From IMG/VR virus record IMGVR_UViG_2681813225_000010, positions 1 through 14,560 of that record: a stretch of 14,560 nucleotides of DNA; one strand, given 5' to 3'. The notes below the pieces were generated by a model. The model did not search any database. It was not told the origin of the DNA and saw nothing but the letters and a program-made list of their open reading frames with translations. This DNA comes from a virus. Taxonomy: Duplodnaviria; Heunggongvirae; Uroviricota; Caudoviricetes. Both the position numbers and the translations under genes were made by a program. Positions 5,233 to 11,926 of the stretch are shown in pieces. Positions within the stretch are counted from its first letter, which is position 1, and the number at the start of each line of letters is the position of its first letter.

Positions 5233-5322
5233 GGAGAGATGCCGGAGCGGCTGAACGGACCGGTCTCGAAAACCGGAGTGGGGGCAACTCCACCGGGGGT
5301 TCAAATCCCCCTCTCTCCGCCA
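5233..5322 (+). tRNA. serU: tRNA-Ser (anticodon CGA), 90 nt including long variable arm and CCA
   Basis: GGAGAGAUGCCGGAGCGGCUGAACGGACCGGUCUCGAAAACCGG... with anticodon loop CUCGAAA (anticodon CGA), long variable arm, T-arm GGGGGUUCAAAUCCCCC, and CCA at 5320-5322. Prophage-type genes begin immediately 3'. Confidence 0.93.
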
Positions 5323-5367
5323 AAATTCAATCACTTATACATCATTAAGTCAGTGACAAAAATCACA

Positions 5368-5404
5368 CTTGGAATTACTTGGAATATTTTCTTGGAATAT
5401 TTTC
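5368..5404. repeat. Three direct CTTGGAAT repeats, the last two inside an exact 13-bp tandem repeat (TTGGAATATTTTC x2); candidate integrase arm-type binding sites in attL
   Basis: CTTGGAAT at 5368-5375, 5378-5385 and 5391-5398. TTGGAATATTTTC at 5379-5391 and 5392-5404. The first copy sits on the last integrase-fragment codons and the other two lie downstream of its stop, between that fragment and the tRNA 3' end. Confidence 0.3.
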
Positions 5405-5845
5405 AGGTAACGGGACATCAAGTGTCGGTGAAACTTTAACCTTCCTGTCATAGATTAGCACTTGCCCCTCGGTTTTGTGACCAGAGAAAAGTTGCTTATC
5501 CCGACTGCTTCCTTCATAGTCTGAAATTCCTTTCGCCTTCAGATCATGAAAGGTGAAGTCGGTTAAAATACCTGAAATTTTGCCTGCGCGATTTCTTGCT
5601 TCTACCCACATTTCGTTAAAGCCTTTGTACATATATCGGTTGCCGTATTGATTACTGATTACATAGGCGGATGTTGGTAACTGTTTTGCTTTTTCGATCG
5701 CCGCCTGTAATCGTGGACTCCATGCTTTTATCTGTTTTTTTCCTGTTTTCCCTTGCTGGATAAAGATTCCGTCGTTTCCAATCTGCTCCCATTTCAGCGA
5801 TAACACATCGGAAACCCTCGCTGCACACAGATAGGCAATTTCCAT
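5375..5845 (-). pseudogene. Tyrosine recombinase (phage integrase) C-terminal catalytic-domain fragment only (156 codons); N-terminal half absent
   Basis: The translation carries the C-terminal catalytic signature of lambda-family integrases (FTFHDLKAKG..., LFSGHKTEGQVLIYDRK with the presumed catalytic Tyr). It reads toward the tRNA 3' end. No upstream minus-strand ORF of 60 aa or more continues it (5846-6078), and full-length enzymes are roughly 330-400 aa. Confidence 0.75.
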
Positions 5846-10337: not shown

Positions 10338-10895
10338 ATGAGCACTATTACCAGAGAACGCGCGGAGATTAAATCATACATCACAGGCTTCCTGAGCGAC
10401 TCGGCGCACGATAACAAGTCTTCAGACAGCCTGCTGGCTAATGTGTTTCGTATCGCGCTGGCATCACTGGAAGCAGAGCCGATAGCAATGGTAGTGCCTG
10501 ATGAAATGGATTTGCTTACCTGCCATCTCGACGGTGTAACTAAAACATATGCTGATGGCTGGAACGCCTGCCGCGTCGCCATGCTTCAGGCCGGAAACTT
10601 TCGGGAAAATAAGAATTCGTCAACCAACAATTTTCGGGAAATCTCGGAAACGTCAACCAGATCTCCGATAACTCTGGATGGCTGGATAAGCTGTACTGAG
10701 CGAATGCCTGAAAAGAGCCAGAACGTGCTTATTTCGATGAATATCGATAGCGAGGCTGGGCCATTAATATATTCCGCACGCTATCTCGGAGGCACGTTCC
10801 GGCGCGGAGGTATAGCAGTTAGTCCGGGTAATGATCTTAGGCAAGCAACCCACTGGATGTCGCTACCAGAACCGCCGCAGGAGGTGAATCAATGA
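10338..10895 (+). CDS. Phage protein with an N-terminal domain of unknown function and a C-terminal DUF551-like domain
   Basis: ORF track. The C-terminus (DGWISCTERMPE...THWMSLPEPP) matches the DUF551 signature as I recall it. No search was run. Confidence 0.65.
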   Translation: MSTITRERAEIKSYITGFLSDSAHDNKSSDSLLANVFRIALASLEAEPIAMVVPDEMDLLTCHLDGVTKTYADGWNACRVAMLQAGNFRENKNSSTNNFREISETSTRSPITLDGWISCTERMPEKSQNVLISMNIDSEAGPLIYSARYLGGTFRRGGIAVSPGNDLRQATHWMSLPEPPQEVNQ

Positions 10896-10975
10896 CCTGG
10901 CCTGAAGCATTCACAACGGTAGGAATTGCGATGGCGGTGGCGCTGGTGGTGTATTCGATTTGCCGCTGGGGATAA
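10892..10975 (+). CDS. 27-codon ORF for a hydrophobic (single predicted TM) peptide, translationally coupled to the upstream gene
   Basis: The ATG at 10892 overlaps the upstream stop (ATGA). A strong SD (AGGAGGTGA, 10880-10888) lies 3-4 nt upstream. Product MTWPEAFTTVGIAMAVALVVYSICRWG. Below the 60-aa cutoff of the ORF track. Confidence 0.4.
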   Translation: MTWPEAFTTVGIAMAVALVVYSICRWG

Positions 10976-10982
10976 AAACGGT

Positions 10983-11010
10983 TTGCGGGAAAAGGATAGT
11001 TAAGTAGAAT
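10983..11010 (+). promoter_or_regulatory. Putative promoter of the hok/mok mRNA
   Basis: -35 TTGCGG (10983-10988), 16-bp spacer, -10 TAGAAT (11005-11010). The predicted start near 11015-11017 coincides with the 5' element that pairs with the transcript 3' end. Confidence 0.4.
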
Positions 11011-11062
11011 TGCAGCGGGTGCTTGAGGCTATCTGCCTCGGGCATGAACACCAACGGCAGAT

Positions 11063-11137
11063 AGAGAAAAGCCCCAGTTAACATTACGCGTCCTGCAAGA
11101 CGCTTAACATTAATCTGAGGCTCAATCCATGCTGAAC
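11063..11137 (-). ncRNA. sok: Putative Sok-like antisense RNA overlapping the mok translation initiation region; ends approximate
   Basis: Minus-strand promoter-like elements: -35 TTGCCT (complement of 11167-11172), 17-bp spacer, -10 TAACCT (complement of 11144-11149). The predicted transcript would be antisense to the mok SD and start codon. A U-run (complement of 11061-11066) could mark the 3' end, but I found no clean terminator hairpin. Confidence 0.3.
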
Positions 11138-11341
11138 ACATGTAGGTTAGCCTCTTACGTGCCGAAAGGCAAGGAGAAGCAGGCTATGAAGCAGCAAAAG
11201 GCGATGTTAATCGCCCTGATCGTCATCTGTTTAACCGTCATAGTGACGGCACTGGTAACGAGGAAAGACCTCTGCGAGGTGCGAATCCGAACCGGTCAGA
11301 CGGAGGTCGCTGTCTTCGTAGACTACGAATCTGAGAAGTAA
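11129..11341 (+). CDS. mok: Mok (modulation of killing) reading frame, an in-frame N-terminal extension of hok
   Basis: ATG at 11129 with GAGG 8 nt upstream. The N-terminus MLNTCR... resembles chromosomal mokC as I recall it; the frame continues through hok. Confidence 0.55.
   Translation: MLNTCRLASYVPKGKEKQAMKQQKAMLIALIVICLTVIVTALVTRKDLCEVRIRTGQTEVAVFVDYESEK
11186..11341 (+). CDS. hok: Hok/Gef-family type I toxin (51 aa membrane peptide)
   Basis: MKQQKAMLIALIVICLTVIVTALVTRKDLCEVRIRTGQTEVAVFVDYESEK has a TM segment followed by the conserved TRK(D/S)LCE...REVAAF-like C-terminal region of Hok/Gef toxins. AAGGAG lies 9 nt upstream of the ATG. Confidence 0.85.
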   Translation: MKQQKAMLIALIVICLTVIVTALVTRKDLCEVRIRTGQTEVAVFVDYESEK

Positions 11342-11348
11342 GAGACCA

Positions 11349-11407
11349 GGCGGGGGAGTAATCTCCCGCCACCTCTGATGTGTCAGGCATCCTCAACGCA
11401 CCCGCGC
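11349..11407 (+). promoter_or_regulatory. hok mRNA 3' structure: GC-rich terminal stem-loop plus an fbi-like element complementary to the mRNA 5' end
   Basis: Stem-loop GGCGGGGG-AGUAAU-CUCCCGCC at 11349-11370. The 3' segment CCTCAACGCACCCGC (11391-11405) is complementary to GCGGGTGCTTGAGG (11015-11028), giving 8 bp + 6 bp with one bulge. Confidence 0.55.
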
Positions 11408-11460
11408 TTTACCATACTGAAAATGCTGTTTGAATGTTCATCTCTGAAAGAGGACTATGA

Positions 11461-11805
11461 ATGAAAAAGGTATTGATTGCAGCACTTATTTCCGGTGTGT
11501 CTTTTGGCGCTTTTGCACAGCAGGGTGGTTTCCAGGGGCCAGAAGCAGAGCGTTCAACAGTAGCGCAGGCAAAAGAACTGAAGGATGATGCATGGGTTAT
11601 CCTTGAAGGGAGCATCGTTAAAAAAGTGGGTGATGAACGTTATGAGTTTCGTGACAATAGCGGGACAATTGTCACGGATATTGATGACAGCGTATGGGCC
11701 GGGCAGAATGTTTCTCCGAAAGACAAAGTAAGAATTGAGGGTGAAATTGATAAAGACCTGAGCAGTGTTGAAGTTGATGTAAAGGCACTGAAATTATTAA
11801 AGTAA
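11461..11805 (+). CDS. YgiW/YdeI-family (BOF, bacterial OB-fold, DUF388) periplasmic protein with signal peptide
   Basis: Signal peptide MKKVLIAALISGVSFGAFAQQ and clear similarity to YgiW-type proteins (QGGFQGP..., TIVTDIDD..., VEVDVK). AAAGAGGA lies 6 nt upstream. Followed by its own terminator. Confidence 0.85.
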   Translation: MKKVLIAALISGVSFGAFAQQGGFQGPEAERSTVAQAKELKDDAWVILEGSIVKKVGDERYEFRDNSGTIVTDIDDSVWAGQNVSPKDKVRIEGEIDKDLSSVEVDVKALKLLK

Positions 11806-11821
11806 CCGCCCCTGCTTGTTA

Positions 11822-11848
11822 AGCCCGTCTTACTGACGGGTTTTCTGT
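11822..11848 (+). terminator. Rho-independent terminator after the BOF gene
   Basis: Stem CCCGTC/GACGGG (11824-11829 and 11835-11840) with a 5-nt loop, followed by TTTTCTGTTT. Confidence 0.6.
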
Positions 11849-11926
11849 TTGTACATTCCGGCGTATTGCCTTACAATTCGCGCAGTCAGCCTGAACAACT
11901 GACACCTGCTGTCACCGGAGAATCCG

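Follow-up and report, generated by a model that had tools for sequence, protein, structure and literature searches.

Positions 10983-11413 of the window (the whole 14,560-nucleotide stretch of viral DNA analyzed here) contain an intact hok/mok/sok type I toxin-antitoxin locus. We assign it, with a probability of about 0.92, to the hokW/mokW/sokW allele of the Stx phages 933W and Sp5, carried in this case by a degraded lambdoid prophage at tRNA-Ser and acting, by homology, through a mechanism like that of plasmid R1 hok/sok. The hokW/mokW/sokW system is already known and is not a discovery. The identification made in the original prediction is correct: the hok/mok/sok identity, the tac-fbi fold-back, the antisense Sok over the mok start, and the carriage by a prophage agreed with all tests run, and every sequence feature that it listed was found where it had been placed. 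For the present copy, sequence elements, homology, predicted folds, and covariation were computed, and the useful outcome is a coordinate-level annotation of every regulatory element.

Identity and elements of the locus

The Rfam family RF01794 matches the window at full length at 11017-11191 (model positions 1-157), where its 113.5 bits (E = 1.1e-25) exceed the gathering score of 59. Compared to the 933W locus annotated as mokW/hokW/sokW, the sequence is 99.2% identical, with 4 differences in 478 nt (10983-11460), and over the whole 976-bp cassette (10877-11852), identity is 97.2%. The substitutions, at 10997, 11014, 11094, and 11349, do not hit any hexamer or predicted pair (0 of 4): three fall in the promoter spacer, in the stretch from the -10 hexamer to the RNA start, and within a hairpin loop, and the fourth, at 11349, amounts to one extra base pair in the 3' hairpin. 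The window is also matched by the primers and probes with which Takada et al. 2021 (PMC8621323) studied hokW-sokW of Sp5. In that study, HokW was toxic, SokW was active as an antitoxin, and both RNAs were seen by northern blot, along with two shorter hokW RNAs, and a partial dependence on RNase III and Hfq was noted; after prophage induction, SokW was lost and HokW production was RecA-dependent, and hokW-sokW assisted lysis and Sp5 phage release, with a twofold effect (PMC8621323). Hence, the northern blots and toxicity assays proposed along with the original prediction are already published for a hokW-sokW locus with 99.2% identity.

The toxin gene hokW (11186-11341, plus strand) encodes 51 amino acids and is preceded by the Shine-Dalgarno (SD) sequence AAGGAG (11171-11176). 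Its product was recognized by Pfam PF01848 HOK_GEF (79.8 bits, cut-off 22, E = 1.1e-22), by PHROG 251 “MokW-like host killing” (E = 1e-32), and by RefSeq as WP_000813258.1, “Hok/Gef family protein”; the NCBIfam Hok subfamily model gave 53.6 bits, under its strict cut-off of 73. The protein has the hallmarks of the family, namely, a length of about 50 aa, an N-terminal transmembrane helix, and the conserved TRKxLCE core, and the cloning primers YO-357 and YO-369 (PMC8621323) match the ends of hokW exactly. Near the 3' end of the gene, MFE folding predicts a hairpin (11314-11338, plus strand) with the 7-nt loop CUACGAA (11323-11329), in which the Tyr47 codon TAC (11324-11326) is part of a TACG motif. 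The stem of this hairpin covaries (CG 16/UA 16 and GC 23/AU 7 at two pairs). The pattern of TadA-edited hok genes is present: at the equivalent of HokB Cys46, the Tyr47 codon TAC precedes a G within a hairpin loop, and Cys30 is hard-coded; editing at the equivalent position has been described for hokC, hokD, and hokE (PMC5630033, PMC12214031; motif pattern in PMC5630033). Position 11325 is, judging from the motif and its predicted loop, a candidate site of TadA A-to-I editing, which would recode Tyr to Cys.

The leader frame mokW (11129-11341, plus strand; found in the open reading frame list and annotated as mokW in 933W) encodes 70 aa. As the original prediction had it, Mok is in frame with the 51-aa Hok, and its ATG at 11129 lies 19 codons upstream of the hok start. 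Among the homologues, the position of the mok start is conserved and the frame varies, being in frame in most loci and +1 in four. The mok SD, GAGG (11117-11120, plus strand), is located 8 nt upstream of the ATG, is invariant in the 33-sequence alignment, and is sequestered in the full-length consensus fold. The Rfam alignment places the Sok-target hairpin CAUG-CUGAACA-CAUG at 11128-11142 (plus strand); its loop contains the YUNR motif (CUGA) and is complementary to the SokW 5' end GUUCAG. The role of such a U-turn loop in Sok targeting comes from R1 hok/sok.

SokW itself is a predicted 71-nt antisense RNA (11067-11137, minus strand; coordinates transferred from the sokW misc_RNA of 933W) that overlies the mok SD and start, with the predicted start at 11137. 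Its fold comprises a long terminator hairpin, with a U tract behind it, and a single-stranded 5' tail. The northern probe YO-592 (PMC8621323) matches 11110-11139. The sokW promoter (11144-11172, minus strand) consists of the -10 hexamer TAACCT (11149-11144), a 17-nt spacer, and the -35 hexamer TTGCCT (11172-11167), of which TTGCC is invariant in the alignment; the mutagenic primer YO-421, used for the promoter-less sokW construct (PMC8621323), alters exactly 11144-11150. The original prediction had antisense promoter-like elements overlying the mok start; it is the SokW RNA that does so, whereas its promoter hexamers lie slightly downstream. These features point to an antisense Sok that is encoded in cis, has a promoter and a terminator of its own, and is complementary to the mok initiation region.

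The hok promoter combines a -35-like hexamer TTGCGG (10983-10988, plus strand; 3 of 6 consensus positions, under the scan threshold) with a -10 hexamer TAGAAT (11005-11010, plus strand; 5 of 6) across a 16-nt spacer. In nearly all of the 33 homologues, a -10-like hexamer is found 6 nt upstream of the conserved GGG at the RNA start, whereas TTGCGG is common to the closest relatives only and is not conserved family-wide. Thus, both hexamers of the proposed promoter are present and the position of the -10 is conserved, but with 8 of 12 consensus positions, the pair failed the consensus scan, and the -35 is not conserved. The same promoter and terminator consensus scan found nothing across 10850-11550, so that the case for the hok and sok promoters is built on positional conservation and published mutagenesis and not on consensus strength.

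Conservation of the fold-back pairing

The element names used here follow PMC9841398. The mRNA 5' end and the tac element (GGGUGCUUGAGG) correspond to 11017-11028 (plus strand), with position 1 of RF01794 at 11017, and tac pairs with fbi in both the MFE fold and the RNAalifold prediction. Next to tac is the 5' leader hairpin (11029-11064, plus strand; CUAUCUGCC...GGCAGAUAG), which is present in the Rfam consensus structure, in MFE folding, and in RNAalifold, which pairs columns 13-20 with columns 42-49 and shows two-sided changes at some of the pairs. The ucb or anti-SD box (11067-11075, plus strand; AAAAGCCCC) has two possible partners, tac and the mok SD: the Rfam consensus structure pairs it with the 5' end (tac-ucb), whereas RNAalifold on the full-length alignment pairs the anti-SD GCC.C with the mok SD, and the stem below covaries (e.g., AU 22/GC 11). 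Directly after the hok stop codon, MFE folding shows a GC-rich 3' stem-loop (11349-11370, plus strand) that is conserved in the alignment and that, by analogy with R1 (PMC9841398), may protect the 3' end of the processed mRNA. The fold-back element fbi, CCUCAA-C-GCACCC, occupies 11391-11403 (plus strand) and pairs with 11017-11028.

The 14-bp complementarity with one bulge that had been proposed between the two ends of the mRNA is present: GCGGGTGCTTGAGG (11015-11028) pairs with CCTCAACGCACCCGC (11391-11405), and the C at 11397 is left as a single bulge. The twelve pairs between 11017-11028 and 11391-11403 are inside the family-conserved RNA, whose 5' end is at 11017. On its own, the tac-fbi duplex is only moderately unusual. 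When the 3' region was dinucleotide-shuffled, 15 of 2000 versions (~0.75%) did as well as the -21.5 kcal/mol of this duplex, and energies of -22 to -24 kcal/mol occur for unrelated tiles at other places in the window. What makes the fold-back convincing is that the full-length MFE structure uses it, that RNAalifold predicts it independently, and that 31 of the 33 homologues keep it. The MFE fold of the full-length RNA closes the 5' end on the 3' end, with z = -7.4. RNAalifold, run on the 33 non-redundant loci that make up the homologue set, predicts the tac-fbi pairing, the hairpin that sequesters the SD, and long-range stems; at 16 pairs, both partners are changed.

Absence of the 5'-3' complementarity from homologous loci would have spoken against the original prediction; the pairing is instead kept at the same place in these 31 loci, with compensatory changes. 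Position 4 of the tac-fbi helix is UA in 18, CG in 10, and UG in 2 sequences, and position 12 is GC in 20 and AU in 11. Over the 33-homologue alignment, 98.4% of the cells are paired compared to ~40% when the partner is slid, and the observed covariation score was reached by none of 500 shuffles. Covariation of the fold-back is thus confirmed across Escherichia, Kluyvera, Citrobacter, Pantoea, Erwinia, and Photorhabdus loci. Cross-clade duplex energies were discarded as a covariation test: an Escherichia 5' end with a Photorhabdus 3' end is as stable as the cognate pair because of U-G wobble and an absent bulge, so that this comparison does not demonstrate covariation, and per-position pair counts were used instead. 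The MFE folds of RNAs ending at 11388, 11375, and 11345 contain a local 5' hairpin and not the textbook tac-ucb stem.

On the model of the homologous hok/sok of plasmid R1, synthesis of a mok-hok mRNA would begin at ~11017 under a constitutive promoter whose -10 is at 11005-11010. In the full-length RNA, tac (11017-11028) and fbi (11391-11403) would lock a closed fold, with the mok SD (11117-11120) sequestered by the anti-SD box (11067-11075), and this closed RNA would be neither translated nor bound by Sok. Once the 3' part with fbi has been removed as far as the stable hairpin at 11349-11370, tac would be able to pair with the anti-SD box, and this pairing would free the mok SD together with the target loop at 11132-11138. 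For as long as the cell contains SokW (11137 to 11067, minus strand), the target loop would be paired with the 5' tail of SokW; the duplex would block translation of mok and, therefore, the coupled translation of hok, and would then be degraded. Upon loss of SokW, Mok and Hok would be translated, and the 51-aa Hok would insert into the inner membrane and damage it. We only infer this refolding pathway, the processing step, and the role of the locus in the degraded prophage.

The 3' junction and the YgiW-like gene

Homology to other hok loci stops at 11413, within a junction (11404-11460, plus strand) that was delineated from blastn boundaries and direct comparison and is devoid of the terminator of the relatives. 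The scan detected no terminator-like site in 11404-11460, and local structure across this junction is not significant (z = +0.4). Close homologues and the R1-type plasmid locus contain an intrinsic terminator 8-15 nt past the fold-back element; it is present in the R1-type locus and in the homologous loci L004, L006, L007, L010, L013, L020, and L021, whereas after 11413, the CCCGCUUCGGCGGGUUUUUU terminator is absent. The locus had been described as complete, which holds for the hok/mok/sok elements but not for the intrinsic terminator after fbi, kept by all close relatives. An intrinsic terminator directly after fbi, giving an mRNA of ~360-400 nt, is accordingly not a feature of the hokW type. 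Given that the functional hokW of 933W is also without a terminator after fbi, we consider this a variant that does not exclude membership in the family.

Downstream of hokW, and fused to it, is a gene for a YgiW/YdeI-like periplasmic OB-fold (BOF) protein (11461-11805, plus strand; Pfam BOF, E = 2e-33; NCBIfam stress_OB_fold, E = 3e-40). The same arrangement is found in 933W, where this gene is L0136. The YgiW-like gene was also considered as a general hok partner, and this was rejected as tblastn matches were confined to hokW-type loci. The first intrinsic terminator downstream of the hok promoter, a 9-bp stem followed by UUUUCUGUUUG, was detected by the terminator scan at 11821-11853 (plus strand; fold z = -3.2), and the cassette common with 933W ends at 11852.

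As the terminator after fbi is missing, the sense RNA of ~390 nt expected in the original prediction is doubtful, and the primary transcript would run through the YgiW-like gene to 11821-11853. Our tentative suggestion is that the hok promoter might drive an RNA of ~835 nt over mok, hok, and the YgiW-like gene, in which fbi would be internal and not 3'-terminal. If so, the R1 route, slow 3' exonucleolytic trimming from a nearby terminator, would be excluded for hok activation, which would need an endonucleolytic cut or much longer trimming, and expression of a periplasmic stress protein would be tied to the toxin transcript. The R1 processing scheme may not carry over unchanged to the hokW mRNA. 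The methods and results of PMC8621323 give neither a size nor a 3' end for this mRNA, the other papers on hokW that were examined add no data on it, and none of the papers examined describes the hok-YgiW-like read-through arrangement. The hok-YgiW-like junction is present in 550 of 5426 complete E. coli genomes; a hokW subtype without the canonical terminator in ~10% of these genomes bears on the reach of the R1 processing model.

Prophage context, biological role, and comparison with known systems

According to the RefSeq annotation, the host element is a lambdoid prophage, now degraded, that occupies tRNA-Ser in the chromosome of a STEC-type E. coli, and the cassette (10877-11852) is inserted between the replication genes and the DUF968/RusA region. 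The prophage integrase is frameshifted and partial, and ydaS is partial. With a broken integrase and a truncated ydaS, the induction-linked role seen for Sp5 may not apply here, and the same degradation is in line with the locus being an intact but functionless remnant, that is, a hitchhiking selfish cassette silenced by paralogous Sok RNAs, with no consequence for cell or phage. The multiplicity of copies fits this possibility, with a median of 2 and a maximum of 11 related places per E. coli genome and 8 in the closest complete genome, and so does the earlier finding that chromosomal hokA, hokB, and hokC failed to bring about post-segregational killing. The regulatory elements, however, are all intact, only 4 neutral-looking substitutions separate the present copy from a functional hokW-sokW, and a 601-base query around the locus retrieved 505 records at 99% identity or higher. 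Moreover, the Sok 5' tail and the target loop differ between paralogues, even in one genome (L004 versus L007), which argues against general cross-silencing. A functionless remnant seems to us rather unlikely.

Addiction, or post-segregational killing, is the established role of plasmid R1 hok/sok: upon loss of the prophage, Sok would be gone before the stable hok mRNA, and the cell would die, so that the element would be stabilized in the population. The 933W record labels the mokW/hokW/sokW genes “prophage maintenance,” and a survey found hok to be four-fold enriched in prophages, but Takada et al. (PMC8621323) observed a role after induction and not in maintenance, and a near-identical Sok from another copy would cancel the effect. 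As the main role of the present locus, addiction is possible but doubtful. The least probable main role, in our view, is abortive-infection defense against superinfecting phages, whereby infection would shut off host transcription, the unstable Sok would decay, and Hok would kill the cell ahead of the end of the invader's cycle. It derives from the observation that, with R1 hok/sok present on a high-copy plasmid, T4 plating fell by 42% and plaques were ~85% smaller, and from the frequent carriage of defense genes by prophages. The measured effect of hokW-sokW, in contrast, favors the resident phage (PMC8621323), and in a large survey, hok was not enriched near defense systems (12% observed versus 9.4% expected).

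The assignment to the hokW/mokW/sokW allele can be set against the better known relatives. The R1-type parB locus resembles hokW in the promoter, tac, 5' hairpin, anti-SD, mok SD, Sok loop, hok, 3' hairpin, and fbi; in both, the mok start is located ~112 nt into the RNA, the Sok promoter lies inside mok, and mok is in frame with hok. Nevertheless, the two Hok proteins are only 44% identical, the R1-type locus has its intrinsic terminator directly after fbi whereas hokW has none, and the R1 carrier is a plasmid in contrast to the prophage that harbors the present copy. The hokW Sok also has a longer terminator hairpin because of an 18-20 nt insertion relative to the Rfam consensus. The chromosomal hokC (gef)/mokC/sokC locus of E. 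coli encodes a Hok 78-80% identical to that of hokW, with mok in frame and starting at the same position and with tac-fbi conserved in intact versions; its Sok hairpin is shorter than that of hokW, and the K-12-type copy (L016) has lost the 3' region, including fbi. The closest Hok subfamily is that of the hokD (relF)-like loci of lambdoid prophages and P1-like plasmids. In prophage loci of E. coli, Shigella, and E. albertii, hokD-like Hok proteins are 92-98% identical and share the same leader with the extended Sok hairpin; plasmid relatives are named hokD by PGAP. Unlike hokW, these loci keep a CCCGC-UUCG-GCGGG-U6 terminator 8 nt after fbi and are without a YgiW-like gene downstream. In 933W (AF125520) and Sp5, finally, the locus agrees with the present copy in the coordinates of Hok, Mok, and Sok, in the YgiW-like gene fused downstream, and in the missing terminator after fbi; 933W carries the cassette near the genome end, whereas the present copy resides in a different prophage and at a different position.

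The hok and mok frames and their prophage setting

The list of open reading frames (ORFs) contains a 70-aa frame at 11129-11341, the final 51 codons of which begin at the ATG at 11186. The predicted 51-aa Hok toxin with an upstream Mok frame is thus borne out, also by database matches: Pfam HOK_GEF matches residues 25-66 of the 70-aa frame (E = 1.1e-22), the 51-aa protein matches PHROG 251, “MokW-like host killing” (E = 1e-32), and Rfam RF01794, the model of the sense-strand hok leader, has a full-length match at 11017-11191 (113.5 bits; gathering score 59). The promoter hexamers are present as predicted (TTGCGG, 10983-10988; TAGAAT, 11005-11010; 16-nt spacer) and are not called by a simple consensus promoter scan. 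Nearly all homologues have a -10-like hexamer (TAGAAT, TATAAT, TATATT, or TACAAT) 6 nt upstream of a conserved GGG start; the -35 region is not conserved among them. The position of the mok start is conserved across loci, in most of them in frame with hok and 19 codons upstream, whereas in four of the fetched loci (L013, L014, L025, and L026) a one-base displacement puts it in the +1 frame relative to hok. The variable frame agrees with the published view that mok translation, not the Mok product, is what matters (PMC9841398), and is consistent with the Mok sequence being unimportant.

The window is a segment of the Escherichia coli chromosome that several complete STEC-type genomes match end to end (99.8% identity). 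In the RefSeq annotation of the best match, a truncated yeeJ, tRNA-Asn, mtfA, and tRNA-Ser are followed by a lambdoid prophage with a frameshifted partial integrase and a partial ydaS; then come ydaT, replication genes, and DUF1627, DUF4014, and DUF551 genes, and, finally, “Hok/Gef family protein,” “NirD/YgiW/YdeI family stress tolerance protein,” DUF968, RusA, and later genes. This gene order places the hok locus in the DNA of a degraded prophage. With nothing but a frameshifted fragment of the integrase left and the neighboring ydaS truncated, the prophage has lost its early-left region by deletion. The tRNA-Ser gene (5233-5319) adjoins the prophage (noted region, 5233-5845). Upstream of hok, a hydrophobic 27-aa ORF (10892-10975, plus strand; MTWPEAFTTVGIAMAVALVVYSICRWG), which begins at an ATG that shares bases with the DUF551 stop codon (ATGA), lacks annotation in the RefSeq and 933W records; the protein is 100% conserved in prophage loci L007 and L012 and 81% in 933W and L023, and may be a real small membrane protein.

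Conservation of the fold-back pairing

The original prediction held that the ends of the hok mRNA pair in the fold-back arrangement that keeps the full-length message translationally inert. Segments 11015-11028 and 11391-11405 are complementary apart from a single bulged C, in exact agreement with that prediction, and 12 of the pairs fall inside the RNA if its first base is 11017, the position matched by the start of the Rfam model. The strength of this duplex (-21.5 kcal/mol) was reached by 15 of 2,000 shuffled 3' regions and, on its own, is suggestive only. In the fold of the complete 394-nt RNA, the ends are paired, and the energy lies 7.4 standard deviations below that of shuffles.

For comparison, 47 loci encoding Hok relatives were fetched from contigs, one genome per species, with the RNA 5' ends placed using RF01794, and 33 non-redundant full-length regions were aligned (Escherichia, Shigella, Kluyvera, Citrobacter, Pantoea, Erwinia, Photorhabdus, and two unclassified enterobacterial genomes). 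Absence of the complementarity from homologous loci had been named as the outcome that would speak against the prediction; in 31 of the 33 loci, the initial 12-16 nt of the RNA are paired with a stretch lying about 45 nt past the hok stop, and the two loci without this pairing both have disrupted 3' flanks. RNAalifold predicted the closing helix from the alignment without any hint. Position 4 of this helix is U-A in 18 loci, C-G in 10, and U-G in 2, and at position 12, 20 loci have G-C and 11 have A-U. Across six helices (the pairing of the 5' element tac, 11017-11028, with the fold-back element fbi, 11391-11403; two segments of the hairpin sequestering the mok Shine-Dalgarno sequence; two long-range stems; and the editing hairpin), 98.4% of the cells are paired, compared with about 40% after a shift of the partner by 1-3 columns, and a covariation score as high as the observed one did not arise in any of 500 shuffles. 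Complementarity of the two ends is therefore conserved throughout the family and covaries; the predicted observation is confirmed, and its interpretation is supported.

Several of the fetched loci stand out individually. In an E. coli hokC-type locus (L016:1365-1428), homology to intact relatives stops right after the 3' hairpin and fbi is missing, in agreement with reports of disrupted K-12 chromosomal hok loci. A Photorhabdus temperata contig (L030:1056-2406) carries three tandem hok leaders spaced by about 620-630 nt (RF01794 matches at 1056, 1685, and 2303). The leader with the top RF01794 score of all loci (133 bits), from an Erwinia genome (L045:750-1140), starts 95 nt past three CRISPR-DR4 repeats, so that this hok locus adjoins a CRISPR array. 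Two very short contigs labelled Acinetobacter idrijaensis (L015, 275 nt) and Xanthomonas pisi (L023, 431 nt) encode Hok proteins that share 91-100% identity with that of the E. coli prophage and most likely represent contamination of these assemblies.

The antisense RNA and a candidate editing site

On the minus strand, the sok promoter (-35 TTGCCT, 11172-11167; 17-nt spacer; -10 TAACCT, 11149-11144) precedes a predicted start at 11137, from which the 71-nt Sok RNA extends down to 11067, with a free 5' tail, a long hairpin, and then a U tract. The complement of the Sok 5' end, GUUCAG, lies in the loop CUGAACA (11132-11138), which carries a YUNR motif and belongs to a small hairpin containing the mok ATG. 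Among close paralogues, this tail and target-loop region (11121-11138; alignment columns 107-125) varies more than any other part of the hok leader and differs even between two loci of the same genome (L004 and L007, both from CP178302.1), with the flanking stems conserved; such variation could insulate co-resident hok/sok copies against cross-repression.

In the Hok protein, Cys30 is DNA-encoded, and Tyr47 is specified by TAC inside a TACG motif that lies in a 7-nt hairpin loop, CUACGAA (11323-11329, plus strand), on a stem that covaries across the family. At the corresponding position of hokC, hokD, and hokE, A-to-I editing by TadA changes Tyr to Cys (PMC5630033, PMC12214031). The hairpin fits this described pattern, making the window copy a candidate editing site.

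Relationship to hokW-sokW and the terminator region

A search of phage genomes showed that 933W and many other Stx phages carry the region with 99.2% identity. The annotated 933W genes map to the window as sokW (11067-11137, minus strand), mokW (11129-11341), hokW (11186-11341), and a YgiW-like ORF (11461-11805), and only four bases differ over 10983-11460: in the promoter spacer (10997), between the -10 hexamer and the RNA start (11014), in a hairpin loop (11094), and at an extra base pair in the 3' hairpin (11349). The hokW-sokW pair of the Sakai prophage Sp5 was studied by Takada et al. (2021; PMC8621323). The window contains matches to their primers and probes, with one deletion primer showing the base of 933W at 11349; 11144-11150 is exactly the target of the mutagenic primer that destroys the sokW -10. 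In Sp5, both RNAs were detected by northern blot, and HokW causes growth arrest that is prevented by SokW expressed from its own promoter, with partial contributions of RNase III and Hfq; upon mitomycin C treatment, SokW disappears and HokW is produced RecA-dependently and located in the inner membrane, and deletion of hokW-sokW halves phage release (PMC8621323). The regulatory model (tac, fbi, the anti-SD box ucb, and dcb; 3' processing; metastable folding) is summarized in PMC9841398. The window locus is a further copy of this named, experimentally characterized, and already known system. A 2026 preprint reports a four-fold enrichment of hok in prophages and no enrichment close to defence systems. 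In the degraded prophage, the candidates are addiction, induction-linked lysis, defence, or no role at all.

Homology of the window to other hok loci stops at 11413, ten bases past fbi. At that point, the relatives have an intrinsic terminator: CCCGC-UUCG-GCGGG with a U run after it in five loci (L004, L006, L007, L010, and L021), and different GC hairpins, likewise ahead of a U run, in L013 and L020. In the window, 11372-11465 folds no better than shuffles and no terminator-like site was found there; the first terminator downstream (11821-11853) lies past a gene for a YgiW/YdeI-like periplasmic OB-fold protein that, with this terminator, occupies the exact place of the hok terminator of other loci (11404-11853, plus strand). 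The flank beyond the hok terminator in L010 and L008 is homologous to 11885-11911 and, judged against this arrangement, the hok terminator has been replaced by about 420 nt with the YgiW-like gene and its terminator. Of 5,426 complete E. coli genomes, 550 contain the fbi-to-YgiW junction; the YgiW-like gene is not linked to other hok loci. The segment common to 933W (10877-11852, 976 bp) ends just after the terminator of the YgiW-like gene and, being located at a different genomic position there, behaves like a mobile “moron” cassette.

By inference, transcription from hokW continues as far as about 11850, on an RNA that is probably shared with the YgiW-like gene; the published hokW northern blots give no RNA sizes. 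Loss of the terminator, together with this probable co-transcription, is the only element of the locus for which we could not find a description. The R1-type plasmid locus has its well-known terminator at this point, whereas the window and 933W lack such a structure; the terminator loss with the probable co-transcription is a modest variant, common to 933W and the Sp5 locus.
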